Shown one piece after another: positions 2,900 to 21,805 of a stretch of 64,000 bases of DNA. Position numbers and translations under genes: made by a program. The stretch lies in contig CAYWPX010000001.1 of NCBI GenBank assembly GCA_964460615.1, positions 49,826-113,825 on the forward strand, given 5' to 3'. Position 1 is the first letter of the stretch. Each line of letters starts with the position of its first letter. Origin of the DNA: an uncultured Planctomycetia bacterium. Its GTDB lineage: Bacteria; Omnitrophota; Gorgyraeia; CAYWPX01. The notes beneath the pieces are model-generated. The model was not told the DNA's origin. It made no database searches and saw only the letters and a program-made list of their open reading frames with translations.

Positions 2900-2946
2900 T
2901 TAGTTGTTAGCACCCTTATTAATTATTTTGATAGGAGTATTACGGG

Positions 2947-5173: not shown

Positions 5174-6102
5174 GTTTATATTTAGTTACGGGAGGTGCGG
5201 GGTTTATTGGTTCCAATATTGTTGAGGCTTTAGTCAAAAAGAATAAGAAAGTAAGAGTTCTTGACAGCCTTATAACGGGAAAGATAGACAACCTCAAACC
5301 TTTTATGGATAAGATAGAATTTGTGAAAGGCGATATAAGGGATAACGCGGTTTTAGACACATCCCTTAAAGGTGTTGACTATGTTCTGCATCAGGCGGCT
5401 TTGAGGAGCGTTGCCAAGTCGGTTGAGGACCCCGAGATAACAAACGATATAAATATTAATGGGACGTTGAAACTTTTTCTGGCAGCACATGATGCTAAGG
5501 TGAAAAGGGTTGTTTACGCTTCTAGTAGTTCTGTCTATGGAGAGACCAAAAAATTCCCTGAAAGAGAATCTGACGCTCCTTCACCTATTTCTCCTTATGC
5601 TGTTTCTAAGCTGGCGGGAGAGTACTATGGCAAGATGTTTACCACTACATATAAGCTTGAAACAGTCGGTTTAAGGTATTTTAACGTATTTGGCCCCAGG
5701 CAGAACCCTGAGTCAAGATATTCGGCGGTTATACCTGCATTTATTTCCAGGATGCTTAACGGTGAAAGCCCTATAGTTGACAGCGATGGAAAACAGGCAA
5801 GGGATTTTACATATGTTGAAAACGTGGTTGAAGCTAATCTCAAGGCAGCTACGGCTAAAAATATTGCTGGGATGGTTTTTAATGTGGGATGCGGGGAAAG
5901 CTACGACCTTCTTTATATAATAAAAGTGATAAATAATTATTTAGGTACTGATATAAAACCTGTTTTTGCACCCAAAAGGCCCGGAGACGTAAGAAAGACC
6001 ATAGCCGATATAAGACTTTTGAAGAAAAAATTAGGAACTACTCTTAAAGTGAGATTTGATGAAGGCCTTGAAAGGACTATTAAATGGTTCGAAACAAAGT
6101 AA
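5170..6102 (+). CDS. NAD-dependent nucleotide-sugar epimerase (WbpP/TviC-like UDP-HexNAc(A) 4-epimerase family)
   Basis: [21 protein letters not shown] (YxxxK), 310 aa. It is translationally coupled to the upstream dehydrogenase, as in the wbpO-wbpP and tviB-tviC pairs. Confidence 0.7.
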
Positions 6103-7079
6103 AGGTCGTCCTTATAACGGGTGGTGCGGGTTTTATCGGTTCGCATCTGAGCGATTATCTTCTTGAAAGGGGTTATAGAGTAATATGTATTGATAACTTT
6201 ATAACAGGCTCTATTAATAATATCAAACATCTATTCAAGAACAAAAATTATGTACTTATTAACCATAATATTACAAAGCATATAAATATTGGCGGCAAGA
6301 TAGATTATATTTTGCATTTTGCTTCACCCGCAAGCCCCGCAGATTACCTTAAATACCCGATCCAGACTCTTAAGGTAGGCGCTTTGGGTACCCATAATGC
6401 TTTGGGGCTTGCAAAAAGCAAGAAGGCTACTATTCTTATCGCTTCCACAAGCGAGGTTTATGGTGATCCGTTGGTTCACCCTCAGAAAGAATCTTATTGG
6501 GGAAATGTCAATCCTATAGGCCCTAGAGGAGTTTATGATGAAGCCAAGAGATTCGCTGAGGCGATCACTATGGCTTATCACAGGACTCACAAGGTAGATA
6601 CAAAGATAATAAGGATATTCAATACTTACGGCCCCCGAATGAGAAAAAATGACGGCAGGGCGGTGCCGAATTTTATCTCCCAGATCTTAGCTGGCAAACC
6701 CATAACTATTTTCGGAAAGGGCCAGCAATCAAGGAGTTTCTGTTATATCTCTGACATGGTGGATGGCATTTACAGGTTAATGCTTTCTGATATCAATCAG
6801 CCTGTTAATATCGGCAATCCTCACGAGATAACCATTATGCAGTTGGCAAAAGCTATTATTAAGCTTACCGGCATTAAAGCAAAAATTGTTTATGAAGATC
6901 TTCCTGTAGATGATCCAAAAAATAGACAGCCTTATATTAAACTGGCAAGGACACTTCTTGGATGGCAGCCTAAAGTCGGGCTTGAAGAAGGCTTGACCAG
7001 GACAATAGAATATTTTAGAAAAAAAGAGAAGAGCGATGATACGAATAGGCCAAATAGGCGCAGGAATCTGGGGAAGTAA
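6084..7079 (+). CDS. UDP-glucuronate decarboxylase (UDP-xylose synthase)
   Basis: [23 protein letters not shown], and IFNTYGPRM, which is characteristic of UXS/ArnA-type decarboxylases. Confidence 0.8.
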
Positions 7080-8055
7080 CCTTCTCAGGAATTTTGCAGC
7101 GTTAGATAATGCCCAAGTAGTGGTCTGCTGCGATAAAGATAAAGCCAAACTTGAAAAAGCAAGATTGATCCATCCCGGAGTTGAGACTACCCAAAAAGCC
7201 GAAGACCTTTATTTTAAATATGATCTGGATGCCGTAGTTATAGCAACGCCGCCTTCAACGCACGGTAAGCTTGCACTGGAGGCTCTCAAAAACGACAAGC
7301 ATGTCTTTGTGGAGAAGCCGATAGCGCTTAAGACTAAGGATGCTTTAAGACTTTGTAAGATAGCAAAAGAACGGCAAAGGAATCTGATGGTCGGGCACCT
7401 CCTTTTGTATCATCCGGCTGTAAGATTTTTGAAAAAATCAATAGACAACGGCGAGCTTGGAAAGATCTTTTATATATATTCCACCCGTGTAAATCTCGGA
7501 CAGGTCAGGTTGGAGGAAAATGCTCTTTGGAGCCTGGCGCCGCATGATGTCTCGGTTGCTATGCATCTAGTCGGAGATATGCCGATCGAGGTCACAGCCA
7601 GGGGGGAGTCATATTTGCAGAAGGATATCGAGGATGTTATTTTTATGACCCTCAAATTTAAGAATAATATTCTCTGTAATATTCATGTTAGCTGGCTGGA
7701 TCCGCACAAGATTAGGAAATTTACGATTGTCGGCTCGGAAAAAATGGCAGTTTTTGATGATATGGACCCTGCCAATAAGATTAAAATTTATAATAAAGGC
7801 ATAGACAAAAAAACGGACTATAATTATTCGACATTCTTCAGTATCCGCGAAGGGGATATCCATATTCCAAGGGTTGAACTGATGGAGCCTTTAAAGATAG
7901 AATGCAAACACTTTGTCGACTCTATAATAAATAAGACAACCCCGTTTACCGACGGAAGAAATGGCCTGGAGGTATTAAGTGTTCTTGAAGCTGCTCAGAA
8001 GTCGCTTGGCAATTTTGGCAGGCCGGTAAAGGTGAAGAGGGATTTTGATGAGTAA
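7036..8055 (+). CDS. Gfo/Idh/MocA-family oxidoreductase (WbpB/WlbA-like sugar 3-oxidase)
   Basis: N-terminal [14 protein letters not shown] Rossmann motif and a VEKP motif. It forms an oxidase, acetyltransferase and aminotransferase triad with the next two genes. Confidence 0.7.
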
Positions 8056-8635
8056 AAAACCGAAGGTTTTTATACACAAAAGTTCATTTGTAGATAAGGG
8101 AGCAATTATCGGAGATGGAAGTGCCGTATGGCACTTTTCGCACATATCCAAGGATTCAAAGCTCGGCAAAAACTGCAAGCTTGGCCAGAATGTGTTTGTT
8201 GCCTCCAATGTCTCTATTGGGGATAATGTAAAGATACAGAATAATGTATCTCTGTATGAAGGGGTTACGCTCGAGGATAATGTTTTCTGCGGCCCTTCAT
8301 CCGTATTTACTAATATATTTAATCCCAGGTGCCTTTATCCAAGGAATTCGGCCAAGTTCTACAAAAAAACGCTTGTTAAAAACGGCGCTTCTATCGGGGC
8401 GAATGCAACTATTGTCTGCGGGGTTACTATAGGTGAACATGCGTTTATTGGCGCGGGGTCGGTAGTTACGCGTGATGTTCCGGATTATGGGCTTGTTTAT
8501 GGAAACCCGGCAAGGCTTAAAGGGTGGATGTGCTTGTGCGGTGAAAAACTAAAAATTAATTCCAAAAAAAATACTCATTGCAAATTTTGTGCTAAAGAGT
8601 TTAAATTTGAGAAAGGATTTCTTAAAAAGATATGA
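8045..8635 (+). CDS. hexapeptide-repeat (LbH) sugar N-acetyltransferase (WbpD/WlbB-like) with a C-terminal Cys4 zinc-ribbon tail
   Basis: Repeated [LIV]G-x-x-x-x hexapeptide periodicity. C-terminus CLCGEKL...HCKFCAKEF. Confidence 0.7.
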
Positions 8636-9780
8636 ATACTTCCGATACCAAAAACAAATTAAACAAACATATACCGCTTCTTGATTTGAAGCTTCAGTAT
8701 AAATCAATTAAAAGCGAGATAGATTCGGCGATCCAGAAGGTCGTTGAAGACCAGAATTTTATTATGGGCGAGGATGTCAGGCTTCTCGAAAATGAGATCG
8801 CCTCCTATAGCGGTGTGAAATACGGTATTGGCGTATCAAGCGGGACGGATGCTTTGATACTGGCTCTTAGGGCAATAGGGATAAAAGAGGGCGATGAGGT
8901 TATAACCACGCCTTTTACGTTCATGGCGACTGCCGGGGCAATTTCAAATGTCGGGGCGACTCCTGTATTTGTTGATATTACGCCGGATACATATAATATT
9001 GACTTCAAAAAGATCGAAGCTAAGATCACTAAAAATACAAAAGCTATCATCCCTGTGCATTTGTATGGGCAGTGTGCCGACATGGATGAGATCCTTAAAA
9101 TTGCGAATAAACATAATCTCAGGGTAATAGAGGATTCCGCCCAGTCGATAGGCGCTACTTATAAAGGAAGGCCGTCCTCTTCGATGGGGGATATGGGTTG
9201 TATAAGCTTTTTCCCGAGTAAAAATCTGGGGGCTTTCGGGGATGGCGGCATGGTAGTTACTGATAATGCCGAGCTTGCCGATAAAGTAAAGGTTTTAAGG
9301 GTTCATGGCAGTAAGATCAGGTATATTCATTCCATTATAGGTACAAATGCAAGGCTTGATAATCTGCAGGCAGCAGTTCTAAGGGTAAAGCTAAGGCATC
9401 TCGACGCTTGGGCAAAGAAGAGAACGGAAAATGCCGGGATATATAACGAGCTTTTTAAAAACGTAAATGGCGTTAAGACACCTTATGTTCCCGGTTATAA
9501 CACACACGTTTATCATCAGTACGTGATAAGCGTAGACCCGAAAAAACGCGATATTATTCTTAAGAAATTGGAAGAGAATAATGTTGAAAGCAGGGTATAT
9601 TATCCCATTCCTCTCCATTTGCAGGAATGTTATAAATTTTTGGGGTACAAAGAAGGCGATTTTCCAAATTCTGAGTTTGCAAGCCGTTCGACGCTTGCTC
9701 TTCCGGTATATCCTGAGCTTACAAAAGAAGATATTTCCTTCATAACAGGATTAATAGCCGAATTCCTTTCCAGGTCATAA
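8632..9780 (+). CDS. DegT/DnrJ/EryC1/StrS-family PLP aminotransferase (WbpE/WlbC-like)
   Basis: 382 aa. LLDLK..Y....[26 protein letters not shown] and fold-type I sugar aminotransferase motifs. Confidence 0.8.
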
Positions 9781-9842: not shown

Positions 9843-10202
9843 ATGAACAATAAGACACATGATATTCTGGATTCCGAAAAGACTCTTCATATACTTAAGG
9901 AGATCGAACAGAATCCCCAGGTGACCCAAAGGTATCTTTCCGAGAAATTTGTCATAAGTCTCGGCAAGGTGAATTACCTCATTAATTCCCTCATAGGAAA
10001 AGGCCTTATTAAAGTTAAAAACTTCAAAAACTCCAAAAATAAGCTTGCCTACATGTATATTTTTACACCCGAAGGACTGAAGGCAAAAATCGAAATCACT
10101 AAAAAATTCTTAGAGTGGAAGACCATTGAATACGGAAGAATAAAAAAAGATATAGAAAACTACAAAAAAGAGATCACTGCTTATTCGTCAAAGCCCGAAT
10201 AA
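9843..10202 (+). CDS. MarR/winged-helix transcriptional regulator of the EPS/nonulosonate-associated type
   Basis: 119 aa. Helix-turn-helix region QRYLSEKFVISLGKVNYLINSLIGKGLI. This small regulator class typically heads nonulosonic-acid and EPS loci. Confidence 0.55.
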   Translation: MNNKTHDILDSEKTLHILKEIEQNPQVTQRYLSEKFVISLGKVNYLINSLIGKGLIKVKNFKNSKNKLAYMYIFTPEGLKAKIEITKKFLEWKTIEYGRIKKDIENYKKEITAYSSKPE

Positions 10203-10228: not shown

Positions 10229-11125
10229 ATGCCAAGAAAGACAGTAAAAATAGGAAATAAAACAATAGGGGATGGGTATCCTTGTTATGTTATAGCAGAG
10301 ATAGGCATAAATCATAACGGCTCTTTGGATATAGCAAAAAAACTTATTGATGTTGCCATTGAGTCCGGATGTGACGCTGTAAAATTCCAGAAAAGGACCG
10401 TAGAAATTGTCTATACAGCCGAAGAGCTTTTAAAACCCAGAGAGAACCCATTCGGCACAACCAATGGCGATCTTAAAAGAGGGCTGGAATTCGGGGTCAA
10501 TGAGTATAAAGAAATCGATAGTTATTGTAAATCCAAGGGTATCGATTGGTTTGTATCGTGCTGGGATGAAAAATCGGTTGATTTTATGAAGCAGTTTAAC
10601 CCTCCTTGTTATAAGATCGCCTCCGCGTCTTTGACCGATGAGAATCTTTTAAAACACCACCTTACCACAAAAAAACCTATAATTCTTTCTACCGGTATGA
10701 GCGATATTAAGATGATTGAAGATGCTGTCAAAATATTAGGGGAGGACAATCTTGTTATAATGCACTGCACAAGTACCTATCCGTCAAAGCCGGAAGAACT
10801 TAATCTGAAAGGGATAGAGACTTTGAGGAATAGATTTAATGTTCCGATAGGCTATTCCGGGCATGAGGTCGGGTTGTATACCACTTATGCCTCAGTAATA
10901 TTGGGCGCAAATTCTGTCGAGAGGCACATTACCTTAGACAGGTCAATGTGGGGAAGCGATCAGGCTGCTTCGGTAGAGCCTCAGGGTATGAAAAGGCTTG
11001 TAGCTGATATAAGGACGTGGGAAGCGGCGAAAGGTGACGGTGAAATAAAGATTTATGATAGCGAAATCCCTATAATCCAGAAACTTAGAAGAGTGAATTC
11101 AAAGTCGGGGGTTTTATCAAAATAG
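10229..11125 (+). CDS. NeuB-family nonulosonic-acid (sialic/pseudaminic/legionaminic-type) synthase, apparently lacking a full C-terminal SAF domain
   Basis: CYVIAEIGINHNGSLDIAKKLIDVA..GCDAVKFQKR is the canonical NeuB TIM-barrel N-terminus. It is 298 aa, against about 335-350 for NeuB, PseI and LegI. Confidence 0.8.
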   Translation: MPRKTVKIGNKTIGDGYPCYVIAEIGINHNGSLDIAKKLIDVAIESGCDAVKFQKRTVEIVYTAEELLKPRENPFGTTNGDLKRGLEFGVNEYKEIDSYCKSKGIDWFVSCWDEKSVDFMKQFNPPCYKIASASLTDENLLKHHLTTKKPIILSTGMSDIKMIEDAVKILGEDNLVIMHCTSTYPSKPEELNLKGIETLRNRFNVPIGYSGHEVGLYTTYASVILGANSVERHITLDRSMWGSDQAASVEPQGMKRLVADIRTWEAAKGDGEIKIYDSEIPIIQKLRRVNSKSGVLSK

Positions 11126-11129
11126 TAAG

Positions 11130-12326
11130 GTGAAAAAAATGATCGATGCAGATTTGAAAATAGATTTCCCCGGGGTTCAGACAAGGCTTCTCGCCGAAGA
11201 AGAAAAAAAGGTAATGGAATGCATCCATAACGCCAGGGTCTTAACGATGGGGCCATACCTCAAAGAGTTAGAGAATAATTTTGCAAAGTATTTAGGTGTG
11301 AAATACGCTCTGGGGGTCAATAACTGCACTTCCGCTTTGGAATTAGCGGCTATGATAATTAATCTAAAAGAGGATGACGAGGTTATTATACCGGCGCATA
11401 CTTTTACCTCGAGTGCCATCCCGTTTTTAAGGCTAAAATGTAAGATCGTATTCGTTGATATAGACCCTAAAACTTTCGTCATGTCTATGGATGATATTAA
11501 AAAGAAGGTGACGAATAAGACCAAGGTTATTATGGCTGTGCATCTATATGGGCTTATGGCTCCGATGAGAGAAATTTCAAAATTAGCCAAAGAAAGAAAT
11601 ATAATAATTATTGAGGATGTTGCCCAGGCACCCGGCGCCGAAATTGACGGCAAAAAATCCGGCGCTTGGGGGGATACGGCATGTTTTAGTTTCCATAGCC
11701 AGAAAAATATAACAGCTCTTGGCGAAGGAGGGATGATTACTACCAATGACGAGAGTTCTTATGAAAGTATTCTGGGCTTAAGAAAAATAGGAAGTAAACC
11801 CTATAATAACCAGGAGTTTTACTGGAAGCCGGCGATGACAAATATTATCGAGGCCCTTCCGGGAAGAGTGCCTTACAATTTTGCCTTGCCTGAACCTAAT
11901 GCCTGTGCCGCTAATTCAATACTTCTGAGGCTCGACAAGGTTAATAATACAAGATTTGAACAGGCGAGGCTTATAAAAGACTCTCTATCAGAATTCAAGG
12001 AACTGGAATTTCAGGAGATACCCCCTGGATACAAGCACGTGTATCATCTATTAGTGGCTCGCTATACCTCCGGGACCAGCCACAGGGACGATCTTATAGA
12101 GCTTTTATATACCAAATATGGCATCAAATGTGTTGTACAGTATAATCCTCTTTATAATTATGATCTCTTTATTAAAAACGGCTATACCAAAAAGACATGC
12201 CCGGAAGCGGACAGGTTTTTTGGCAATATGATATCGTTTCCATTCTGGTCGGATATGCCTAAAGAAGACATAGATTATATAATTAATTCCACCAGAGAAG
12301 CGATCTTAACTTTGAGGAAAAAGTAA
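11130..12326 (+). CDS. DegT/DnrJ/EryC1-family aminotransferase (PseC/LegC-like)
   Basis: 398 aa, PLP sugar aminotransferase motifs (NCTSALELAA, FSFHSQKNITALGEGG). Confidence 0.75.
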   Translation: MKKMIDADLKIDFPGVQTRLLAEEEKKVMECIHNARVLTMGPYLKELENNFAKYLGVKYALGVNNCTSALELAAMIINLKEDDEVIIPAHTFTSSAIPFLRLKCKIVFVDIDPKTFVMSMDDIKKKVTNKTKVIMAVHLYGLMAPMREISKLAKERNIIIIEDVAQAPGAEIDGKKSGAWGDTACFSFHSQKNITALGEGGMITTNDESSYESILGLRKIGSKPYNNQEFYWKPAMTNIIEALPGRVPYNFALPEPNACAANSILLRLDKVNNTRFEQARLIKDSLSEFKELEFQEIPPGYKHVYHLLVARYTSGTSHRDDLIELLYTKYGIKCVVQYNPLYNYDLFIKNGYTKKTCPEADRFFGNMISFPFWSDMPKEDIDYIINSTREAILTLRKK

Positions 12327-12327: not shown

Positions 12328-13125
12328 ATGGCCTTAAATGGTTTAGCATGCGTAAATGTAGAACTCACATCAAGATGCAATAAAAAATGCTGGATGTGCG
12401 GCCGCAGGAAGGTTGATAATGACTATCCGGAGTTAGCGCTTAAATACGGCGATATGGATTTTGATCTGGTTAAAAAAATAGCTAGCTCACTTCCGCCGAA
12501 TATAGTTACGCAGTTCCATAAGGACGGCGAGGCGCTTTTGTATCCACGTTTCGGTGAAGCGGTAAAACTTTTTAAGAATCAAATCAAAAATATCGTTACT
12601 AACGGCAAACTTATAGTAGAAAAGGCCGATGAAATAATCGATAATCTTGATACGATATCGATTTCAGTTTTTGAGGGCGATGAGGAGGCTGACGAGCAGC
12701 TGGAGCTTGTCAAAAAATTTCTTAAGCTAAAAGGTGACAGAAAACCTTTTACGAGCCTCAGGCTTATAGGGGAAGTTGACCCGGCAAAGTATGAGAAATT
12801 AGGATGCCTTATAATTAAAAGAGTCCTTCACGCCCAGATGGGGAGCTATAACTATCGCAAAAAAAATCCTACAATACCCGAAATCGGTATCTGCTGGGAT
12901 TTTCTGCATCATATGTGCATCAATAGGGAAGGCAACGTATCTATTTGCGTGCGTTTTGATCCCAAAGGGCTTGGTATTATAGGAAACCTTGAGAATAATT
13001 CGATTGATGAGATTTGGAATAGCCCAAAACGTATGGAGTGGCTTGAGCATCATAAGCTCGGCAAAAGGTCGGAGATACCGTTATGTTCATATTGTGAATT
13101 TTGGGGAGTTCCGACTTCAACTTAA
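12328..13125 (+). CDS. small radical SAM enzyme with C-terminal SPASM/twitch-like cysteine cluster (BtrN-like size)
   Basis: CNKKCWMC is the CxxxCxxC motif near the N-terminus. Additional Cys cluster CWDFLHHMC...ICVRF...CSYCEFWG at the C-terminus. 265 aa. Confidence 0.6.
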   Translation: MALNGLACVNVELTSRCNKKCWMCGRRKVDNDYPELALKYGDMDFDLVKKIASSLPPNIVTQFHKDGEALLYPRFGEAVKLFKNQIKNIVTNGKLIVEKADEIIDNLDTISISVFEGDEEADEQLELVKKFLKLKGDRKPFTSLRLIGEVDPAKYEKLGCLIIKRVLHAQMGSYNYRKKNPTIPEIGICWDFLHHMCINREGNVSICVRFDPKGLGIIGNLENNSIDEIWNSPKRMEWLEHHKLGKRSEIPLCSYCEFWGVPTST

Positions 13126-13154: not shown

Positions 13155-13814
13155 ATGCCAAATTCTAAAAATAAAATAAATCATAGGCCCTATATCCTCG
13201 GTGTAATACCGGCAAGAGGCGGGAGCAAAGGGATAAAAAGAAAAAATATCAAACCTATTAACGGAAAGCCGCTTATATACTGGTCCATTAAGGCTGCCAA
13301 AGAGTCAAAGCTTTTGAGTAGTTTTATTGTATCTACTGAGGATAAAGAGATAAAGTCTGTTGCCCATAAATATGACGCTCTTGTTCTTGACAGGCCAAAG
13401 GAGCTTGCCAGGGATTTTTCTACAACTCTTTCGGTACTTCAGCATATTATAAAGGTTATGTCGTATGTTGATATTATTGTTCTCCTCCAGCCGACATCTC
13501 CCTTAAGAGACGGCAAGCTTATTGATATGGCAATAAAAAAGTTCATCGAAAATAAAGTCGATACCTTAGCGACCGGATATATGTCGTTTGAATATGAATG
13601 GGGCTCAACCCAGAATACGCCAAGACAGAAATTGACCGGATGGTTCTATGATGACGGCAATGTTTATGTACATAAAGCCTCAGCATTAGCTAAAGGTGAG
13701 TGGGTCGGAAAGAAGAAATACCCTCTTGTTATTGACAAAAAATATAATTATGAGATCGATGATGAGATGGATTTTTTGATAGTCGAAACTCTTATGAAAA
13801 GGTTTTCCCGATAA
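13155..13814 (+). CDS. CMP-nonulosonate synthetase (acylneuraminate cytidylyltransferase family, NeuA/PseF/LegF-like)
   Basis: ILGVIPARGGSKGIKRKNIKPINGKPLI, the canonical CMP-sugar cytidylyltransferase N-terminus. 219 aa. Confidence 0.8.
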   Translation: MPNSKNKINHRPYILGVIPARGGSKGIKRKNIKPINGKPLIYWSIKAAKESKLLSSFIVSTEDKEIKSVAHKYDALVLDRPKELARDFSTTLSVLQHIIKVMSYVDIIVLLQPTSPLRDGKLIDMAIKKFIENKVDTLATGYMSFEYEWGSTQNTPRQKLTGWFYDDGNVYVHKASALAKGEWVGKKKYPLVIDKKYNYEIDDEMDFLIVETLMKRFSR

Positions 13815-13816: not shown

Positions 13817-15223
13817 ATGAAAATACTTCTTATATATCCAAATTGCGAAGGTTATGGCAGGATACCTATAGGCCTCTCATTGATATCCGCAAGTCTAAAA
13901 AAGGCAGGGCATGAGGTCAGGCTTTTTGACCTGACGTTCAAGGTAAGCCGCAATATTGATAATGAAGAGCGTGAGGCGATCGGTACTGCCAAAAAAGTTG
14001 ATACGCTTTCTTATTGGGGAGAGGTTACAAATTCTGATATACATCAGGAATTAAAAGAGCTTATAGGTGAATATAACCCTCGCCTTGTGGGCATTACTCT
14101 TATTCAGAATAATTACTGGACAAGTGTAGACCTATTAAAAACTATCCGCAGCGTCAGTGACGCGCATATTGTAGCAGGCGGAGTATTTTCGACGGTTTCC
14201 CCCCAGATACTCCTAATGGATAACCTTGTTGATAGTGTTATTATGGGAGAGGGCGAGATAGCTTCTGTGGAGCTGGCCAAGAGGATCGAAGCGCATAAGG
14301 ATTATAGAGACGTCAGTAACCTTGCATACCTTAAGGACGGTAAAGTTATCCGCAATCCGATACTTGGCTATGTAAAGCTGGATGATATCCCGTTCCAGGA
14401 CCTCAGCATCTTTGACGAGAGACATTTTATGAAGCCTTTTGACGGCAGAATGGTGAGGGCGGGTTACGTTGAGCTTACAAGGGGATGCCCCTTTAGCTGC
14501 ACATACTGTGTAAATTATTTTCTTAATGAAGAACTTTATTCACACGAGACAAAGCATATAAGGTTCAGGGATCCTGAGAATTCAATCAATGAGATAAGGG
14601 AATTAAAAAGTAAGTATAATTTTAATTTCATATTTTTTACCGATGAAAATATTCTGGTGCTTCCCTATAAGGAACTCAAAAAATATGCCGAGCTTTGGAA
14701 TAAATATATCAAGCTTCCTTTCTATGTGACAACAAGGGTTGAAGTAGCTACTGAAGATAAAGTGAGCCTTTTAAGGGATATGGGCTGCGCGACAGTTGCT
14801 TTTGGGATAGAATGCGGAAATGAAAAATACCGAAGAGAGATGCTTACAAGGCTTACCACAAACGCCCAGATAATAAAGGCTTTTAAGCTATGCAAAAAAT
14901 ATGGCATTAGGACCACCGCAAATAATATGTTCGGCTTCCCTTATGAGACCGAAGATCTGATATTCGACACTATAAAATTAAATATAGACGCTGATCCCGA
15001 CAGTTATTCACTCAGCATATTCGCTCCTTATATAGGTACAAAGCTCCACGAGATCTGCCTTAAAGAGGGTTACATAGAGCCCGGGATACCGCGTAAGATC
15101 TCCATGATAGATGAAAGCATATTGACTATGCCTCAGCTTAGTAAGGATAGGATCCGCGAGCTTTACGCTAATTTTGTAAAATACGTTTCAAAAGAGATCG
15201 CTATTCCAAAAGAGTATCAGTAG
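13817..15223 (+). CDS. cobalamin(B12)-binding-domain radical SAM protein, class B, paralog 1
   Basis: N-terminal Rossmann-like B12-binding domain (KILLIYPN...IGLSLISASL), then GCPFSCTYC as CxxxCxxC. 468 aa. Confidence 0.8.
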   Translation: MKILLIYPNCEGYGRIPIGLSLISASLKKAGHEVRLFDLTFKVSRNIDNEEREAIGTAKKVDTLSYWGEVTNSDIHQELKELIGEYNPRLVGITLIQNNYWTSVDLLKTIRSVSDAHIVAGGVFSTVSPQILLMDNLVDSVIMGEGEIASVELAKRIEAHKDYRDVSNLAYLKDGKVIRNPILGYVKLDDIPFQDLSIFDERHFMKPFDGRMVRAGYVELTRGCPFSCTYCVNYFLNEELYSHETKHIRFRDPENSINEIRELKSKYNFNFIFFTDENILVLPYKELKKYAELWNKYIKLPFYVTTRVEVATEDKVSLLRDMGCATVAFGIECGNEKYRREMLTRLTTNAQIIKAFKLCKKYGIRTTANNMFGFPYETEDLIFDTIKLNIDADPDSYSLSIFAPYIGTKLHEICLKEGYIEPGIPRKISMIDESILTMPQLSKDRIRELYANFVKYVSKEIAIPKEYQ

Positions 15224-15259: not shown

Positions 15260-16786
15260 GTGCAAAAAGTGAATAAAAATTCAAATAAAGATTTTAAAGT
15301 GTTGTTCATCTATTATAACCCGCGCAAAATGTCCTTGGTCCCGCCTTCTATCGCGCTTTTTTCAAGCTTATTAAAATCAATAGATGTAAAAGTGGATCTA
15401 TTTGATACAACACTTTACGAAAAACAGGATAATCTTGATTCTGACGCTATTGAAGAGAAAAATCTTACCGTAAAACCTTTTTCCGAGAGCCTAAATGTCA
15501 CTAAAAAGGTTAATTATCGAAGTGCCGATATAGCTGGCGACCTGGATAGCCTGATAAAAAGCTTTAAGCCGGATCTATTAGCGGTAACAGCAGTGGAAAG
15601 TACGTTTGAAGGGAGTATTGCGCTTTTAAAAAAGATCCGTCATCATAAGATCCCTACAATTATCGGAGGGGTTTTTGCAACATTTGCCCCGGAGATCGTA
15701 ATATCATATCCTGAAATCGATATGTTATGCATCGGAGAAGGTGAGAAGGCGATCATAGAGTTAGTTCTAAAGATGCGCGAAGGCAAGGATTATTCGGATG
15801 TAACCAATCTGTGGGTAAAAAAGCAAGACGGCTCAGTTATTAAAAATCCTATAGCGAGGTTAGTTAGTCTGGACGAAAACCCCCTCCCTGATATGTCGAT
15901 TTTTGAGGACTCAAGGTTTTATAGGGCGATGGGCGGCAAGATTTATAAGATGTTCGCTGTGGAGACGCATAGAGGATGCATATTTAGCTGCGGATTCTGC
16001 AATTCGCCTTTACAGAATAGGTTCTACAAGGAAAATACAAATCAGATATATTTTCGCCACAAATCCATCGAGAAGGTCAAAGAAGAGATCGACTATTATG
16101 TAAAATTAGGCGCCGAGTATATTTTTTTATGGGCGGACAATTTTTTTGCATATCCTGACAAGTTGATTGATGAATTCTGTGAAATGTATAAAGAGTATAA
16201 GCTGCCTTTTTATTGCCAGTCTCACCCTGAGAATCTTAAAAAAGAGAGGATCCTGAAGCTTAAGGAGATCGGGATGCAGCGTATCGGCATAGGTATTGAG
16301 CATGGCAATGAGGATTTCAGGAAAAGGGTAGTCAATAGAAACTACACCAATGCTATGCTTATAGAGCGTCTTAAGATGCTTACGGACCTTGGTGTTGAAT
16401 ATAGCGTAAATAATATAATAGGATTTCCTGAAGAGACGCCGGAACTTGTCATGGACACTATTGAGCTTAATCGCCAGCATACGGCAAGTGACATAAGCTG
16501 TTCGATATTTACCCCTTTTCACGGGACACCTTTAAGAAAACTGGCGCTTGAAAGAGGTTATTTGAAAGATCCGGAGCTCATTGCGCCGTCAAATGCCGAT
16601 TCGTCGGTTCTTGTAATGCCTGATTTCAGTCAGGATGAGATATTAGGTAAACAGCGTACATTTATTTTTTATATCAAATTTCCGAAGGATCGCTGGGGCG
16701 AGATCAGTAAAGCAGAAAAATTGACTCCCGAAGGTGACAGGATATGGGCGAGACTCAGAGAAGAGTTCGTAAAGACGTATCTATAA
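15260..16786 (+). CDS. cobalamin-binding radical SAM protein, class B, paralog 2 (GTG start)
   Basis: VLFIYYNPRK...SIALFSSLL B12-domain, then GCIFSCGFC. 508 aa. A GAGGGGA RBS precedes the GTG start. Confidence 0.8.
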   Translation: MQKVNKNSNKDFKVLFIYYNPRKMSLVPPSIALFSSLLKSIDVKVDLFDTTLYEKQDNLDSDAIEEKNLTVKPFSESLNVTKKVNYRSADIAGDLDSLIKSFKPDLLAVTAVESTFEGSIALLKKIRHHKIPTIIGGVFATFAPEIVISYPEIDMLCIGEGEKAIIELVLKMREGKDYSDVTNLWVKKQDGSVIKNPIARLVSLDENPLPDMSIFEDSRFYRAMGGKIYKMFAVETHRGCIFSCGFCNSPLQNRFYKENTNQIYFRHKSIEKVKEEIDYYVKLGAEYIFLWADNFFAYPDKLIDEFCEMYKEYKLPFYCQSHPENLKKERILKLKEIGMQRIGIGIEHGNEDFRKRVVNRNYTNAMLIERLKMLTDLGVEYSVNNIIGFPEETPELVMDTIELNRQHTASDISCSIFTPFHGTPLRKLALERGYLKDPELIAPSNADSSVLVMPDFSQDEILGKQRTFIFYIKFPKDRWGEISKAEKLTPEGDRIWARLREEFVKTYL

Positions 16787-16806: not shown

Positions 16807-18618
16807 ATGAATCTAATTTTCCTTGAAGAGATTGAGCAGATCGATAGTGTAGCCGGATTACTTAAAGCTGGTTACAGGGCCGTTGCCTTTACGCCGAAAG
16901 TTGTGCATGAGCTGGAAAAAAAAGGGATCGCTTACCTTCGGCCGGAGGATTACTATGATAATGACGCTTTGCAAAGAGAATGGACAGGTTATTATGATCT
17001 ATCCTGGAAGATCATCCGTTCTTTAGACGACGAGCTATTAAGTAAAACTGATGATTTTGATCTGTCGAAACTGAAGATAAGGCCTTTGGAAGCAAATGCA
17101 CAGATGTTTTTTAATATGTTTCGCCAGATCGTTATCAATATCTATATCCTAGAAAAGATCTTTGAAAAGGAATCGCCAAAAAAAGTTATTTACCCGGAAG
17201 AGATCCCCGATAAGTTGACATACAGGCTATATTTTGAAGATGAGTCGGTGGTTTCTTATCTTGTTCCTATCTTTGCCAAGATAAAAGGTTTTGAGGAAGG
17301 ATCCTTCAGTTGGCAAAAAACAGTTGTTTTGCCGGGGATCAAAAGAAGCGAACTCCCGTCTATTAGAAAATTTATCAGGGAGTCTTTATTAAGAGTAGCG
17401 GGCCATTTTAAGCATAACCCTAATAAGAGATCCATATTGGTTTTTCATAATGGGTATGATTTGAATTATATAATACCGCTGCTTTTAAAAAAGGGCCATA
17501 AGGTCATTGATTTTGAGGCATTTTTAAAGAATACTAAGAAGGTATCTGAAAGAGCATATTATCATCTCGTCTTTTCCAAGGATAATAATTATGAAAGTCT
17601 TTTTGAATACAGATCGGTCAACTTTTTCCCACTTGTTAAAACAAGGCTTGCTTTTTATCTGGACAATGTTCTGCCGGGGTATATCTCTTTAAAGCATGAT
17701 CTGGAAAAATTATTAAAAAGATCAGATATTCTTATCGGAGGGCATAGCCCGTCAAGGGTATACGAGAATATCCTTTGCGCTTTGGCAAAAGACAGGGGTA
17801 TTAAGGTCGTTTCATTCCAGCACGGTGGGTACGGGGAGAGATTTAACCATATTCTTCATGTGAATGACTTTGATAATCCTTTGTGTGATTATTTTCTATC
17901 CTGGGGAGAAGGTGTAAAGAGGTATGCAGTAAAATACAACCTTAACCGGATAAAGATCATACCGGTCGGCTCCGCCTGGCTTGACAGCCTTGCGATAAAA
18001 AACCATCATGAGGGATCGGCTGATGATAGCATTAAAACTATTCTTTATATACCTACATCTTTGAGAGTAAAGCCGAGATCCAGGATGCTTCCCGGCGAGT
18101 ATTCGGATAATACCTATTATGATCTTCAGAAAAAAATTATTTCGTCGGTTGCTAAAGATCCTAATGTCAAATTGTTAGTTAAGCTTCACCCGGGGGATGA
18201 GGCGGTTAATCCAATAATAGATTTTATAAAAGAGGCAAATCTTAATAACTGTTCGATCGTGTATGGAGAGCTTTCGAGGTGGTTTGAGGGTTCGGACCTT
18301 GTTATTTCGGATTTTATGTCGACGACCCTATTAGTGGCTTTGAGCATGAAAAAGAACGTATTTTTTTATATAGATAGTACGGCAATGCTTCTTGAAAGAG
18401 ACGCCCGGGCGATGATCGACAAAGCTGCTTATACCTTTACAAGTATCAATGATTTTTTGGGATCGATATCCGATTATGTAGATTCACCCGGCAAATTTCC
18501 CAGAAAGACCGGTGATGAGTTCATAATTAATTACGGTACATATATGAATGACGGACAAAGCGGAAAAAGGGCGGTTGAGGCGATCGAAAAAATATTTCCG
18601 GGGGCCAGTTTAAACTGA
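16807..18618 (+). CDS. hypothetical protein, possibly a GT-B-like transferase (TagF or capsule-biosynthesis-like C-terminal half); candidate nonulosonate transferase
   Basis: 603 aa and soluble. Only weak resemblance in the C-terminal region (GGHSPSRVYENILCA...VSFQHGGYGE; DLVISDFMSTTL). The assignment comes mainly from position after the CMP-sugar genes. Confidence 0.3.
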   Translation: MNLIFLEEIEQIDSVAGLLKAGYRAVAFTPKVVHELEKKGIAYLRPEDYYDNDALQREWTGYYDLSWKIIRSLDDELLSKTDDFDLSKLKIRPLEANAQMFFNMFRQIVINIYILEKIFEKESPKKVIYPEEIPDKLTYRLYFEDESVVSYLVPIFAKIKGFEEGSFSWQKTVVLPGIKRSELPSIRKFIRESLLRVAGHFKHNPNKRSILVFHNGYDLNYIIPLLLKKGHKVIDFEAFLKNTKKVSERAYYHLVFSKDNNYESLFEYRSVNFFPLVKTRLAFYLDNVLPGYISLKHDLEKLLKRSDILIGGHSPSRVYENILCALAKDRGIKVVSFQHGGYGERFNHILHVNDFDNPLCDYFLSWGEGVKRYAVKYNLNRIKIIPVGSAWLDSLAIKNHHEGSADDSIKTILYIPTSLRVKPRSRMLPGEYSDNTYYDLQKKIISSVAKDPNVKLLVKLHPGDEAVNPIIDFIKEANLNNCSIVYGELSRWFEGSDLVISDFMSTTLLVALSMKKNVFFYIDSTAMLLERDARAMIDKAAYTFTSINDFLGSISDYVDSPGKFPRKTGDEFIINYGTYMNDGQSGKRAVEAIEKIFPGASLN

Positions 18619-20177
18619 TGCAACTAAAAAAGGTTGATTCTGTAAGAAAGAGGTACCTCGTCACGCTCTTTAGCAACGTAGTCTTATTCATGGCGAGCAT
18701 TGTAACTGCCGGTATTGTCCCTAGGGCGCTGGGGCCTAAAGAGCTAGGGGATTTCGGTTTTTTAAACCGCGTTTCCAGTTCATTCAGAAATATGCTTGAT
18801 ATGGGTACGTCAAGCGCTTTTTTTAACCTCAATTCCAAAGAGGAAAAGACAGGTTCTTTAGTAAAAGCTTACTCGCTCTGGTTTTTGTTCCAGTTAGTAT
18901 TGATAATAAGCCTTATTATCTTGGCATTCTTGATAGGGATAAAGGATCTTATCTGGCCGGGCCAGGAGCTAAAATACATAGTCTGGGTAGCCGTTTTTGA
19001 CTGGGTATTTTTCTCGGCAAGCTTATTAAGACAGCTCGGCGACAGCAAAGGCCATACGACAAATGCGCAGTTAATAAATCTGGTTATAAGTATCTTAAAT
19101 ATTGTTGTTTTAGTTTTTTTTGCGCTTAAAGGATTTTTAAATATAGGCTTTTACATAGCCATCCAGATATTCAGTTCTGCGCTTATTTCGTTATTTATCA
19201 TGTTATTTGTAATAGCCCCCCACAGGGATATTTACTGGGATGGTAAAATCACCGATCACTTAAAAGGGACGATCAAATACTTCAAAGAATTCTGTTCGCC
19301 GCTAGTTATGATAATGATCGTGAGTTTTATTTTTGAGTATTTTGACAGGATGTTCTTGCAGAGGTTCGGCGGGTCGGTAGAGCAGGGGTATTTTCATATT
19401 GCCTCGAGTTGGGCGACATTTTCAACGCTCTTCACAGCATCGTTCCTTTCGATATATAAAAGGGAGGTTGCTTATTCTTTAGGCGGTAATGATAAGCTAA
19501 GGGCATCCGAGATCTTTAGCAAGTACATTAAGATGCTTTACTTTATCACATTGACATTGGCGGTTTTATTGGCTTTTAACGCTAAAGAGTTATTGGAGCT
19601 TATTGCCGGGCCTAAATTCACTCCGGCTACTATGGTCTTATTTTTGATGGCTTTTTATCCTATTCACCAGGTCTATGGGCAGCTTGGCGGGGCGACATTC
19701 TATTCGACTGAAAGGACAAAGGCTCTTAGGAATATTCAGATTGTCGGGATGCTTCTTGGGATAGGGTTAACATATCTATTTTTAGCCCCCTCAACATTAT
19801 TAATACCGGGGCTTGGAATGGGTTCAGTGGGGTTGGCTTTTAAAACAGTTTTATTGAATATTATTATAGTTCAGGTGTATTTAGTTTCTAATTGCAGGTA
19901 TTTTAAAATAAGCCCTAAGCCATTTTGGGTCCATCAGATATATACGGTTTTGATTTTATTTGTTCTGATGGTGGTTTTAAAATGGGCGGTATTCTTTTTT
20001 ATCGGCGGAGTTTCACCTTTGGTTATTTTTGGAAAGCTTGCGCTTTTGGCATTTTTGTATTTTGTTCTTATATTTATTATGATCTATTTTTTCCCGCATA
20101 TTGCGGGTTTGAAAAAGGAAGAGATTGATTTCGTGCTTGATAAGATAAAGGCGGTCTTAAGGTTTAAAAAGGCCTAA
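18618..20177 (+). CDS. polysaccharide-biosynthesis/MOP-superfamily membrane protein (Wzx-like flippase)
   Basis: 519 aa, about 14 hydrophobic segments, with a charged N-terminus followed by repeated TM helices typical of Wzx/MATE-like exporters. Confidence 0.55.
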   Translation: MQLKKVDSVRKRYLVTLFSNVVLFMASIVTAGIVPRALGPKELGDFGFLNRVSSSFRNMLDMGTSSAFFNLNSKEEKTGSLVKAYSLWFLFQLVLIISLIILAFLIGIKDLIWPGQELKYIVWVAVFDWVFFSASLLRQLGDSKGHTTNAQLINLVISILNIVVLVFFALKGFLNIGFYIAIQIFSSALISLFIMLFVIAPHRDIYWDGKITDHLKGTIKYFKEFCSPLVMIMIVSFIFEYFDRMFLQRFGGSVEQGYFHIASSWATFSTLFTASFLSIYKREVAYSLGGNDKLRASEIFSKYIKMLYFITLTLAVLLAFNAKELLELIAGPKFTPATMVLFLMAFYPIHQVYGQLGGATFYSTERTKALRNIQIVGMLLGIGLTYLFLAPSTLLIPGLGMGSVGLAFKTVLLNIIIVQVYLVSNCRYFKISPKPFWVHQIYTVLILFVLMVVLKWAVFFFIGGVSPLVIFGKLALLAFLYFVLIFIMIYFFPHIAGLKKEEIDFVLDKIKAVLRFKKA

Positions 20178-20188: not shown

Positions 20189-21805
20189 ATGAATAAATCT
20201 GCTAAACTAAGGGAGTTATTTAGAAAAGGTAATATCGTAAAGGTCATGGGTTCGCACGATGCGCTTGGCGCAAAATTGGCGGAAAATAGCGGGTTTGACG
20301 CTGTATGGGCAAGCGGCCTTGAGATATCCACGAGCCACGGCGTTCCTGATGCCAATATCCTTACAATGACCGATTTTCTTGACGCGGCAATTTCGATGAA
20401 TGAGGCAGTATCCGTACCGGTGGTTGCCGATTGCGATACTGGTTTCGGAAATTCCAATAATGTAATACACATGGTAAAAAAATATGAAGCGGCGGGCATT
20501 GCGGCTGTCTGCATAGAAGATAAACATTTCCCTAAAGTAAATAGTTTTATTCCGGGCAGGCAGGAGCTTGCGCCTATATCGGAATTCGTAGGAAAGATCT
20601 TGGCCGCCAAGAATGCCCAGTCTACCAAGGATTTTATGGTAATAGCGCGGGTCGAAGCGCTTATAGCCGGCTGGGGAATGGAAGAAGCTCTTAAAAGAGC
20701 CAATGCCTATAGAGATGCCGGAGCCGATGCTATCCTTATACACAGTAAGGCAAAGGACCTTAAAGAGATAAAAGAATTTATTTCTAAATGGAAAAACCGG
20801 TTGCCTTTAGTTGTTGTCCCGACCACATATTATAAAGTCAGCGCTAAAGAGCTTGAATCGATCGGTATAAAGATGGTTATATATGCCAACCAGGGTATGC
20901 GTGCATCAATTAAGGCTATGAGCGATACATATTCCGAGATTATAAGATCCGGCTCGACTGCTTCTATTGAAGATAGTATTGCATCGATGAAAGAGGTTTT
21001 TGAACTCCAGGGAATGACCAAGATGAAGGAGAACGAACTTATTTATTCCGATACTGATACCGATAAAGTTACAGCAATAATTCCTTCCGCCGGAGACCAT
21101 CTTGAAGAATATTCTATGAAGGAGATCTCTAAGGATATACCTATTTCTATGATAGATATAAACGGTAAGCCGCTTCTCCAGAGGCAGCTTGAAGTATTGA
21201 ACCGCTCTAAGGTATATGATGTAAGGGTTGTTGCCGGATACAAGAAAGATAAGATCAACGTTGAGGGAGTAAAGATAGTTTCCAATGACCTCTACAAAAA
21301 AACAGGGATACTTTTTTCTATCATGAAGGCACTTGAAGAAGTGAATTCAAAGGTTTTTATCAGTTATGGCGATGTCATTTTTGACCACATTATTTTTAAC
21401 CGATTATCCGAAAGTCCCAAGGATATAACAATATTAGTAGATAAAACATATGAGGACAAAAATTACGGCCCGGAAAAAAAGATCGATTTTGCCAATGTAA
21501 AAGCCAACCATCCGGGCTCCCAGAGAGTTCTCAACTCTCATTCTATAAAGGTTGTTACAAAGATAAGCCGCAGCGGCGCTGCCTATGAATTCCCGGGTTT
21601 GACATTCCTTTCTTCCAAAGGAGTAAGCATAATAAAAGAGATTTATAAAAAGAATAAACATAGGCTTCTCAGTAGCGGGCTGGGGGATATACTAAATCTT
21701 GCCATAAAAAATGGTTATGAGGTCTCTGCGATAGAGGCTAATTCGGGTTGGATGGAGATACATTCTCTTGAAGATTATAAACTGGCGTGCAAATTAGTGA
21801 GATAA
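20189..21805 (+). CDS. pepM: phosphoenolpyruvate phosphomutase fused to a C-terminal nucleotidyltransferase (Fom1/PntC-like PepM-cytidylyltransferase)
   Basis: N-terminal VMGSHDALGAKLAE..GFDAVWASGLEISTSHGVPDAN and EDKHFPKVNSFIPGRQ match PEP mutase. The C-terminal about 250 aa (AIIPSAGDHLE...INGKPLLQRQLEVL) is a nucleotidyltransferase fold. Confidence 0.85.
   Translation: MNKSAKLRELFRKGNIVKVMGSHDALGAKLAENSGFDAVWASGLEISTSHGVPDANILTMTDFLDAAISMNEAVSVPVVADCDTGFGNSNNVIHMVKKYEAAGIAAVCIEDKHFPKVNSFIPGRQELAPISEFVGKILAAKNAQSTKDFMVIARVEALIAGWGMEEALKRANAYRDAGADAILIHSKAKDLKEIKEFISKWKNRLPLVVVPTTYYKVSAKELESIGIKMVIYANQGMRASIKAMSDTYSEIIRSGSTASIEDSIASMKEVFELQGMTKMKENELIYSDTDTDKVTAIIPSAGDHLEEYSMKEISKDIPISMIDINGKPLLQRQLEVLNRSKVYDVRVVAGYKKDKINVEGVKIVSNDLYKKTGILFSIMKALEEVNSKVFISYGDVIFDHIIFNRLSESPKDITILVDKTYEDKNYGPEKKIDFANVKANHPGSQRVLNSHSIKVVTKISRSGAAYEFPGLTFLSSKGVSIIKEIYKKNKHRLLSSGLGDILNLAIKNGYEVSAIEANSGWMEIHSLEDYKLACKLVR

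Follow-up and report, generated by a model that had tools for sequence, protein, structure and literature searches.

A predicted twitch-domain radical SAM enzyme in a NeuB-type ulosonic acid cassette of mostly anaerobic bacteria and archaea

What is a radical S-adenosylmethionine (SAM) enzyme doing in an operon that appears to build an acidic surface sugar? This question is raised by a 64,000-nucleotide stretch of contig CAYWPX010000001.1 (hereafter the window), from an uncultured bacterium of the Omnitrophota, in which a 265-aa radical SAM protein is encoded between a DegT-family aminotransferase and a cytidylyltransferase, downstream of a NeuB-family synthase. Nonulosonic acids (sialic, pseudaminic, legionaminic) shape the recognition of microbes by hosts, phages and immune systems. 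To our knowledge, all described routes to them use NAD(P)-dependent chemistry on nucleotide sugars, and we know of no radical SAM enzyme in any described nonulosonic acid pathway. Our results support the notion, to which we give a probability of roughly 0.85, that the protein belongs to the twitch radical SAM enzymes and serves a NeuB-type sugar-acid pathway specifically. That it works there as an alcohol dehydrogenase feeding an aminotransferase or short-chain dehydrogenase/reductase (SDR) step has, in our estimate, about even odds. What the data show directly are the protein architecture with its Cys pattern, the likeness to BtrN and SpeY and the statistics of the gene neighbourhood; the oxidation chemistry, the order of the steps and the nature of the substrate, including its carbon number, are inferred from them.

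Architecture of the radical SAM protein

12328..13125, + strand: predicted twitch-domain radical SAM enzyme, 265 aa; ATG-to-stop open reading frame (ORF) with Pfam matches, BtrN being the nearest Protein Data Bank (PDB) entry
12376..12399, + strand: codons of the radical SAM [4Fe-4S] motif C17-X3-C21-X2-C24, read from the sequence
12892..13095, + strand: twitch domain, C189-X12-G202-X4-C207 ... C253-X2-C256, with predicted four-Cys ligation of one auxiliary [4Fe-4S] cluster

The ORF is not a chance one, because the protein has 1727 homologues at E<=1e-3 in a 90%-clustered collection and because seven of its Cys are 100% conserved in 52 genomes across phyla. The best 120 of the 1727 homologues show 66-100% identity and are 244-293 aa long. 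In a 50%-clustered library, 60 representatives, many of them fragments, lie below 1e-30 and are followed by generic SPASM enzymes; thus the family is compact and sharply bounded. It is also poorly described. None of the NCBIfam models comes near its cut-off for the protein (best 47.7 bits against 380), and the RefSeq label of the cultured-strain orthologues WP_020589348.1 and WP_333536804.1 is only "radical SAM/SPASM domain-containing protein". Our literature search found no relevant paper joining radical SAM with nonulosonic acid, NeuB, sialic acid synthase or SPASM, and plasmid and phage collections held no homologue at E<=1e-10.

The initial annotation had described a 265-aa ORF with CNKKCWMC near the N-terminus and a C-terminal group of Cys. 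Both are present, and the Pfam models Radical_SAM (PF04055, residues 11-133, 35.6 bits for a cut-off of 29.5) and SPASM (residues 189-257, 43.6 bits for a cut-off of 21.5) match above cut-off. The CX3CX2C stretch, TSRCNKKCWMCGRRK as read from the translation, holds C17, C21 and C24, and further Cys stand at 160, 189, 197, 207, 253 and 256. Conservation was followed in an alignment of 35 homologues and, separately, in one of 52 proteins from genomes of different phyla. The same seven Cys are invariant in both (C17, C21, C24, C189, C207, C253 and C256); C8, C160 and C197 are Cys in only 15-21% of the sequences of the 52-genome alignment (15% for C197). Many Arg and Lys residues are also invariant in this second alignment, and would suit an acidic substrate.

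The seven-Cys SPASM motif, CX9-15GX4C-gap-CX2CX5CX3C-gap-C, serves two auxiliary clusters, and the twitch domain a single one, ligated by one Cys before a beta-hairpin, one after it and two after helix alpha2' (PMC6231123). The C-terminal Cys pattern of our protein corresponds to the first half of the SPASM motif, since only C189-X12-G-X4-C207 and C253-X2-C256 are present. The Pfam SPASM model matches anyway because it spans the portion shared with twitch domains. Moreover, a second auxiliary cluster cannot be accommodated, because the chain stops 9 residues past C256 and the short C-terminal tails of the relatives carry no conserved Cys. In an AlphaFold2 model computed from the alignment (mean pLDDT 82.6, pTM 0.82), a beta-hairpin (195-198/203-205) is closely flanked by C189 on its N-terminal side and by C207 on its C-terminal side, and C253 and C256 follow a long helix (233-243), so that the predicted ligand topology is that described for BtrN (PMC6231123). 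As all four C-terminal Cys are 100% conserved in the 52 genomes, the domain is of the Cys4 (BtrN) type rather than the three-Cys (MoaA) type. Judged from sequence and model, it is a twitch domain with one predicted Cys4 auxiliary cluster and not a two-cluster SPASM domain. The radical SAM motif begins as early as residue 17, which leaves no N-terminal peptide-recognition domain.

BtrN, the 2-deoxy-scyllo-inosamine dehydrogenase of the butirosin pathway (PDB 4M7T/4M7S), leads the PDB matches both by sequence (E=1.7e-5 with the single protein, E=1.5e-11 with the family profile, both halves aligned) and by fold (Foldseek E=1e-9, TM 0.62/0.67, 19% identity). The HMMER alignment sets CNKKCWMC opposite BtrN CNRTCWYC, aligns the "GE" SAM-binding motif (DGEALL opposite YGEPLL), and places C207, C253 and C256 opposite BtrN chain positions 187, 232 and 235. 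The crystallised BtrN chains measure 269-270 residues against 265, their CX3CX2C motif likewise starts at about residue 16-17, and they have a single twitch domain with four Cys ligands at nearly equal spacing; BtrN also acts on a small polyhydroxylated molecule. The BtrN-like minimal twitch architecture put forward in the initial annotation is thus borne out, and so is the expected alignment of C-terminal Cys with auxiliary-cluster ligands, with C189, which precedes the predicted hairpin, assigned as the first ligand from spacing and predicted topology.

The protein is nevertheless not a BtrN orthologue, on the grounds of this 19% identity and of the lack of 2-deoxy-scyllo-inosose synthase or aminoglycoside genes around it. 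BtrN acts on an aminocyclitol in a Bacillus antibiotic pathway, whereas the present gene sits in a NeuB/CMP-transferase surface-glycan cassette found in many phyla. The second-ranked fold match is SpeY (PDB 7X0B/7WZV; E=4e-7), a twitch radical SAM dehydrogenase according to its depositors, which differs in sequence (15-16% identity, TM 0.43-0.49). SpeY belongs to the pathway of a cyclitol antibiotic, spectinomycin, and to no sugar-acid pathway. CteB, EpeE, DesII, AbmM and SuiB follow. The enzyme anSME, which is absent among the Foldseek matches at E<=1e-3, offers a functional parallel as a radical SAM alcohol/thiol dehydrogenase with fully ligated auxiliary clusters and the O2-independent counterpart of an O2-dependent enzyme (PMC6231123).

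The NeuB cassette across genomes

The radical SAM gene lies 1 nt from the DegT gene and 29 nt from the cytidylyltransferase gene, in a tight operon read from one strand:

9843..10202, + strand: MarR-family EPS (exopolysaccharide)-associated regulator at the operon head (NCBIfam TIGR04176, 123.7 bits, cut-off 88)
10229..11125, + strand: short NeuB-family synthase of ulosonic acid, phosphoenolpyruvate (PEP)-dependent, 298 aa (Pfam NeuB, 5.4e-78)
11130..12326, + strand: DegT/DnrJ/EryC1-family pyridoxal phosphate aminotransferase, in a variable "carbonyl-processing" slot (Pfam, 3.1e-93)
13155..13814, + strand: CMP-ulosonic acid synthetase, a CTP_transf_3 cytidylyltransferase (Pfam, 7.8e-24; PseF model 126.9 bits against 205.7)
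13817..15223, + strand: B12-binding radical SAM enzyme, probable methyltransferase (Pfam B12-binding and Radical_SAM)
15260..16786, + strand: second B12-binding radical SAM enzyme (Pfam B12-binding and Radical_SAM)
16807..18618, + strand: LIC12162/BFO_1060-like transferase, candidate glycosyltransferase for the CMP-sugar acid (TIGR04331 1.5e-13, NF046086 3.2e-12, both sub-cut-off)
18618..20177, + strand: Wzx-type polysaccharide flippase (Pfam Polysacc_synt, 2.1e-12)

A genome scan with one genome per species gave 119 loci, and the neighbourhood work used the best 80 of them, which are 60-80% identical to the window protein. These 80 loci come from Omnitrophota, Patescibacteria, Woesearchaeota and other archaea, Methanoperedens, Dehalococcoidales, Desulfovibrio and Desulfobacter curvatus DSM 3379, and further from Lentisphaerae, Elusimicrobia, Planctomycetes, Clostridia, Nitrospirae, Leptospirales and others, mostly anaerobes; the closest relatives are metagenome-assembled genomes of Omnitrophota. 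Fifty-three loci have at least 4 kb on both sides of the gene, and 61 hold the complete trio of short NeuB, radical SAM protein and CMP-transferase. Within 4 kb, a short NeuB orthologue (277-356 aa, 47-80% identical) is found in 48/53 loci and a CTP_transf_3 cytidylyltransferase also in 48/53, which makes these two the conserved partners of the radical SAM gene. The short NeuB gene directly adjoins the radical SAM gene in 19/53, often with a 4-nt overlap.

The partner that varies is the one expected to process a carbonyl. Exactly one of a class-III aminotransferase (26), an SDR (14) or a class-IV aminotransferase (13) is present in 53 of the 61 complete loci, and two never occur together. Clustering of the accessory ORFs gave class-I methyltransferases in 48 loci, glyoxalase/VOC proteins in 33, B12-radical SAM enzymes in 32, class-III aminotransferases in 27, SDR in 19, class-IV aminotransferases in 17, SIS proteins in 16 and thiamine pyrophosphate (TPP) enzymes in 7. 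Among the 61 complete loci, the B12-binding radical SAM class occurs in 21 and a gene of the NAD-epimerase/dehydratase family in 7, and no PseB/LegB-type partner recurs. With NeuBs for the short NeuB, rSAM for the radical SAM protein, CMPt for the cytidylyltransferase, AT3 and AT4 for the class-III and class-IV aminotransferases and MT for methyltransferases, the gene orders follow fixed patterns, NeuBs-(rSAM)-CMPt-AT3-VOC-MT(-MT), NeuBs-CMPt-AT4-(MT)-rSAM, NeuBs-CMPt-SDR-(VOC-MT)-rSAM and, in Desulfovibrio, NeuBs-MT-TPP-SDR-SIS-rSAM. The window order, NeuBs-DegT-rSAM-CMPt, is a fourth filling of the slot and was seen in none of the 80 species representatives. A DegT aminotransferase occurs within 4 kb in 6/53 loci and within 300 bp in 0/53, and was thus rejected as a conserved partner. 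The other recurrent, unlabelled neighbours are regulators, extra methyltransferases and transporters, which give no hint of the substrate; MarR-like genes stand upstream of the short NeuB in several relatives too, and LIC12162/BFO_1060-like homologues lie downstream of the radical SAM gene in L030, L052, L064, L073 and L074.

The window genes themselves do not form a recognisable Pse, Leg or Neu pathway, as judged by family models, since synthase, aminotransferase and cytidylyltransferase all stay below the equivalog cut-offs. The short NeuB consists of the TIM barrel only, without the C-terminal SAF/antifreeze-like domain; it covers positions 1-277 of the 329 of TIGR03569 (255.5 bits against 399.65) and reaches 210.1 bits against 340.25 with the PseI model, and its GYSGH and ERHITLD motifs align with the equivalent SpsE and PseI motifs. 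The DegT protein has PseC as its best NCBIfam match (224 bits against 423.5), LegC-family models giving 176.2 against 420. Among PDB entries it is closest to 7b0d, named glutamine-scyllo-inositol transaminase (1.5e-51), then BtrR (1.7e-34) and KdnA (PDB 5K8B, 8.4e-31). The initial annotation had placed the gene between a nonulosonate aminotransferase and a CMP-transferase. The position holds on both sides; the label "nonulosonate" for the aminotransferase is less secure, given the PseC score and the name of its best solved relative. The carbohydrate dehydrogenase or epimerase of a nonulosonic acid pathway suggested there fits comparative genomics as far as an ulosonic acid cassette is concerned; a Pse, Leg or Neu pathway, or the aminotransferase as a conserved partner, does not.

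The neighbourhood data also bear on the order of the steps. Mean pairwise identity across bacterial and archaeal phyla is about 62-64% for both the radical SAM protein and the short NeuB, and 36-48% for the cytidylyltransferase. When loci were grouped by partner (AT3, AT4 or SDR), mean pairwise identity within and between types was 0.635 and 0.636 for the radical SAM protein, 0.627 and 0.615 for the short NeuB, and 0.478 and 0.363 for the cytidylyltransferase (AT3-AT3 0.499; AT3-AT4 0.327). Because the cytidylyltransferase alone tracks the partner type, as an enzyme acting on the completed, type-specific sugar would, the radical SAM protein and short NeuB would be shared early steps and CMP activation would follow the tailoring.

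Several further observations concern the cassette. A 290-aa "N-acetylneuraminic acid synthetase" (PDB 6NCS), also without SAF domain, matches the short NeuB at 1.5e-38 and is a possible template for its acceptor pocket. In L026, L028, L034 and L036 (Desulfovibrio and relatives), an FkbM-type methyltransferase, an acetolactate-synthase/YerE-like TPP enzyme, an SDR and a SIS protein stand between short NeuB and radical SAM gene, with no cytidylyltransferase within 6 kb, a variant that hints at a branched-chain sugar acid. In L064 (~4100-8000) and L073, a second cassette of different make-up lies beside the standard one and comprises a full-length NeuB (343 aa), a GNAT acetyltransferase, a WbqC-like protein, a longer twitch radical SAM paralogue (403-409 aa) and a second cytidylyltransferase, and L046 and L048 have two radical SAM copies each. 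The extreme conservation of radical SAM protein and short NeuB goes alongside star-like, uncorrelated distances (loci L005-L084). A GIY-YIG domain is fused to or adjoins the radical SAM gene in some Patescibacteria-type loci (metagenomic P0134; L003:5291-5548) and may mark mobile-element activity. As a guide to partners, gene fusions were uninformative: P0134 is this GIY-YIG endonuclease fusion, and P0160, a truncated CMP-transferase/SPASM chimera, is probably an assembly or frameshift artefact.

Proposed reaction and alternatives

In the NeuB family, condensation of PEP with an aldose yields a 3-deoxy-2-ulosonic acid, to which CTP_transf_3 enzymes add CMP at the C2 hemiketal. At the core of the proposed cassette, the short NeuB would therefore make such an acid from PEP and an aldose. 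The 5'-deoxyadenosyl radical of the radical SAM enzyme would then take a hydrogen from a carbinol carbon, either in the free sugar acid or in its direct precursor. On the model of BtrN and SpeY, the auxiliary cluster would accept the second electron, giving a ketone or aldehyde with no need for O2. This carbonyl would be aminated, here by the adjacent DegT enzyme and elsewhere by a class-III or class-IV aminotransferase, or alternatively be reduced by the SDR in a net, stereo-inverting epimerisation. Optional epimerisation and methylation would come next, then CMP activation, and finally transfer to the surface glycan, for which the LIC12162/BFO_1060-like transferase encoded downstream is a candidate.

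Two arguments place the radical SAM enzyme at the oxidation step. A second carbonyl must be made because the C2 keto group has to persist for CMP activation while the partner enzymes act on carbonyls, and the radical SAM protein is its likely source because it is the only invariant redox enzyme of the cassette. The partners are in keeping with such a carbonyl. The TPP enzyme of the Desulfovibrio variants resembles YerE, a TPP-dependent carboligase that acts on keto-sugars, the VOC fold, often present in the cassette, is used for enolisation beside carbonyls, and the window DegT protein is homologous to BtrR and KdnA, which aminate carbonyls arising from alcohol oxidation. Indeed, the BtrN step in the butirosin pathway is followed by a DegT-family aminotransferase, BtrR/BtrS. 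The closest structural relatives, BtrN and SpeY, are alcohol dehydrogenases, and the auxiliary cluster points in the same direction: the Cys4 cluster of BtrN has been proposed to take up an electron as the alcohol undergoes its two-electron oxidation, and the three-Cys cluster of MoaA binds substrate in a reaction with no net oxidation (PMC9012708, PMC10337720, PMC6231123). Among the known Cys4 twitch/SPASM enzymes, those that act on alcohols are oxidants (PMC9012708).

A number of points weigh against the dehydrogenase reading. Identity to BtrN is low, and C189 has no residue-level BtrN partner, a search with the C-terminal 108 residues having again aligned from G202 onward only. The study of SkfB warns that similarity within the SPASM/twitch group cannot predict function (PMC6231123). 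Eight of the 61 complete loci lack any aminotransferase or SDR; in four of these (L008, L011, L018, L027) the trio lies at the edge of the recovered genes. The aminotransferase or SDR could also act on a carbonyl that the radical SAM enzyme did not make. As to the order of the steps, the radical SAM identities are narrow (0.635 +/- 0.048), so that their independence of partner type may partly reflect saturation. In a mirror-tree test, the distances of radical SAM protein, short NeuB and cytidylyltransferase were uncorrelated (Spearman 0.06, -0.02 and 0.08; Mantel p=0.15, 0.63 and 0.054, the radical SAM-short NeuB pair giving 0.06 and p=0.15), which shows that the radical SAM distances are star-like or saturated. 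Finally, the sample carries a selection bias, since the 80 loci are those that match one query protein best.

The competitor that stands up best, unlikely as we think it is, is a radical dehydratase of the AprD4/DesII kind, in which hydrogen abstraction would be followed by elimination of a neighbouring hydroxyl or amine to leave a deoxy-ketone for the aminotransferase or SDR; it might, for example, install the terminal deoxy group of Pse- or Leg-type sugars without a nucleotide-sugar 4,6-dehydratase. Its carbonyl product explains the mutually exclusive partners equally well, and a 4,6-dehydratase is not regular in the cassette, where the NAD-epimerase/dehydratase-family gene occurs in the 7/61 loci given above. 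AprD4 and AprD3 pair a radical SAM enzyme with a reductase, a parallel to radical SAM enzyme plus SDR. DesII is among the fold matches (E=2.6e-6), but this match is partial (TM 0.53/0.34) and weaker than those of BtrN and SpeY, and the AprD4 model NF033070 gives no match to the protein at E<=0.01; it hits the two B12-type neighbours weakly (55.6 and 44.5 bits for a cut-off of 500). Neither DesII nor AprD4 is known to use a Cys4 twitch auxiliary cluster, and the oxidant role of the Cys4 enzymes acting on alcohols (PMC9012708) speaks against elimination.

Somewhat lower we rank a role upstream of NeuB, an improbable but coherent one, in which the radical SAM enzyme would oxidise a polyol or sugar to an aldehyde or keto-aldose for condensation with PEP by the short NeuB. 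The adjacency of the two genes, with its frequent 4-nt overlap, would fit, as would the type independence of both proteins, which is in keeping with early steps. The SAF domain of NeuB helps bind ManNAc (N-acetylmannosamine), and its lack in the short NeuB implies an unusual acceptor; the cassette is also found in Patescibacteria and DPANN archaea without a visible precursor pathway. However, NeuB turns the aldehyde into a hydroxyl, so that the aminotransferase or SDR would be left without a carbonyl unless the radical SAM enzyme oxidised another position.

For other radical chemistry, such as MoaA-like C-C bond formation or rearrangement or viperin-like action on CTP, we see a slim chance. 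There are weak core matches to viperin, NifB and metallo-cofactor maturase models, a neighbour uses CTP, and functions in the SPASM/twitch group are hard to predict (PMC6231123). These matches cover the generic N-terminal core only and stay far below cut-off (viperin, for example, 24 bits against 180), and the four invariant Cys differ from the open three-Cys site of MoaA (PMC9012708). With this different cluster ligation, the viperin-like and the NifB/MoaA-like roles were rejected. Viperin, moreover, has no auxiliary cluster.

An epimerase of the HygY/NeoN type, which would abstract a hydrogen at a stereocentre and return one from the opposite face, seems to us less probable again. Epimeric diversity is common among nonulosonic acids, which would give such an enzyme a place. 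HygY and NeoN are radical SAM carbohydrate epimerases, HygY with a twitch domain, and both depend on a donor Cys, Cys249 in NeoN and a single Cys in HygY according to a cited title (PMC10991966). They share with the present protein the radical SAM class and act on carbohydrate stereocentres, but in the 52 genomes our family has no conserved Cys beyond the seven ligands. A dehydrogenase is favoured over an epimerase because there is no conserved fifth Cys to return the hydrogen atom; an epimerase also leaves the obligatory, mutually exclusive aminotransferase or SDR partner unexplained.

That the protein is a peptide-modifying SPASM maturase merely sitting in a glycan locus is very improbable in spite of the Pfam SPASM match, weak NCBIfam matches such as AlbA, ScmE and WgkB (15-48 bits against cut-offs of 250-850, or 15-18 against 400-850 for these three models) and the presence of CteB, EpeE and SuiB among the fold matches, as the protein does not group with these maturases (BtrN and then SpeY rank ahead of CteB, EpeE and SuiB), has no recognition domain before its motif at residue 17, can hold one auxiliary cluster at most, leaves no space for a precursor gene in its 1-29 nt gaps, and lies among sugar enzymes in 48/53 loci.

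If the dehydrogenase reading holds, the cassette can be compared with two known systems. In the pathway of Kdo8N (8-amino-3,8-dideoxy-octulosonic acid) of Shewanella, a finished ulosonic acid is oxidised at a hydroxyl by KdnB and then transaminated by the DegT-type KdnA, the homologue of the window DegT protein at 8.4e-31; KdnB is a metal-dependent alcohol-oxidising enzyme and not a radical SAM enzyme, and Kdo is made by KdsA and not by a NeuB-family synthase. The Neu5Ac, pseudaminic and legionaminic acid pathways share with our cassette a NeuB-family synthase, a CTP_transf_3 cytidylyltransferase and surface-glycan products, and differ in that the window NeuB lacks the SAF domain and none of the three window proteins reaches the NeuB, PseI, PseC, LegC or PseF equivalog cut-offs. 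In these canonical routes, NAD(P)-dependent dehydratases and PseC/LegC put the amino groups in place at an early stage, when the sugar is a nucleotide hexose.

The surrounding glycan genes and wider meaning

The remainder of the window is one giant glycan-biosynthesis array (1-64000) with GT2 and GT4 glycosyltransferases, MBOAT and PMT_2 proteins, a formyltransferase and an AsnB-like amidotransferase. The + strand carries all 55 non-shadow ORFs with a length of 150 aa or more, which lie close together or overlap, and every 2 kb bin has a positive GC skew. Directly after the flippase, positions 20189-28007 hold a phosphonate-biosynthesis module:

20189-21805: PEP mutase fused to a nucleotidyltransferase domain
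21787-22299 and 22296-22859: split TPP enzyme resembling phosphonopyruvate decarboxylase
22861-24327: B12-radical SAM enzyme
24329-25393: class-V aminotransferase
25390-26097: NTP_transf_3 enzyme
26090-26926: CDP-alcohol phosphatidyltransferase-family protein
26919-28007: methyltransferase

This module suggests that a methylated aminoalkylphosphonate decorates the same glycan. Five B12-binding radical SAM genes are found in the window (13817-15223, 15260-16786, 22861-24327, 28985-30481 and 45333-46739); together with the twitch enzyme, they represent unusually heavy radical chemistry, probably C-methylation, for a surface polysaccharide. Upstream of the cassette, positions 3869-9780 encode a WbpA/WbpB/WbpD/WbpE-like set (UDP-sugar 6-dehydrogenase, GFO/IDH/MocA oxidoreductase, hexapeptide acetyltransferase and DegT aminotransferase), and a UDP-GlcNAc 2-epimerase lies at 34475-35539, 25 kb from these genes. 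The set and the epimerase are consistent with a 2,3-diacetamido-uronic acid pathway apart from the NeuB cassette. The epimerase goes naturally with the Wbp-like genes. No canonical precursor route was found in the rest of the 64-kb window. RmlA-, RmlB- and RmlD-like genes stand at 1051-3846, with no RmlC-sized ORF among the ORFs of at least 150 aa there, and positions 32523-34472 encode a 649-aa protein in which an N-terminal class-I methyltransferase domain is fused to a GT4 glycosyltransferase.

A wider proposal, which we regard as tentative and on balance rather doubtful, is that the cassette represents an undescribed, O2-independent family of ulosonic acid pathways, horizontally shared among anaerobic bacteria and archaea including Patescibacteria and DPANN, in which groups are installed late on the free sugar acid to give new amino-, epi- or branched nonulosonic or octulosonic acids. 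If this is true, late tailoring would proceed by radical SAM oxidation followed by interchangeable amination (with three aminotransferase folds), reduction or carboligation, in contrast to the early installation on a nucleotide hexose in the known routes.

To conclude, our study highlights a known enzyme class that is newly seen as a fixed part of ulosonic acid biosynthesis, and that forms a large unannotated family of which we found no description. If the proposed role is right, a radical SAM step tied to a NeuB-type synthase would be a new enzymatic logic in the nonulosonic acid field, and twitch carbohydrate enzymes (BtrN, SpeY, HygY) would extend from antibiotic pathways to primary cell-surface biosynthesis. 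The cultured carriers, Desulfobacter curvatus DSM 3379 and Desulfovibrio spp., make the proposal directly testable. One biochemical characterisation would annotate well over 1000 genes, and would allow novel surface sugars to be predicted for Omnitrophota, Patescibacteria, DPANN archaea, sulfate reducers and Methanoperedens.

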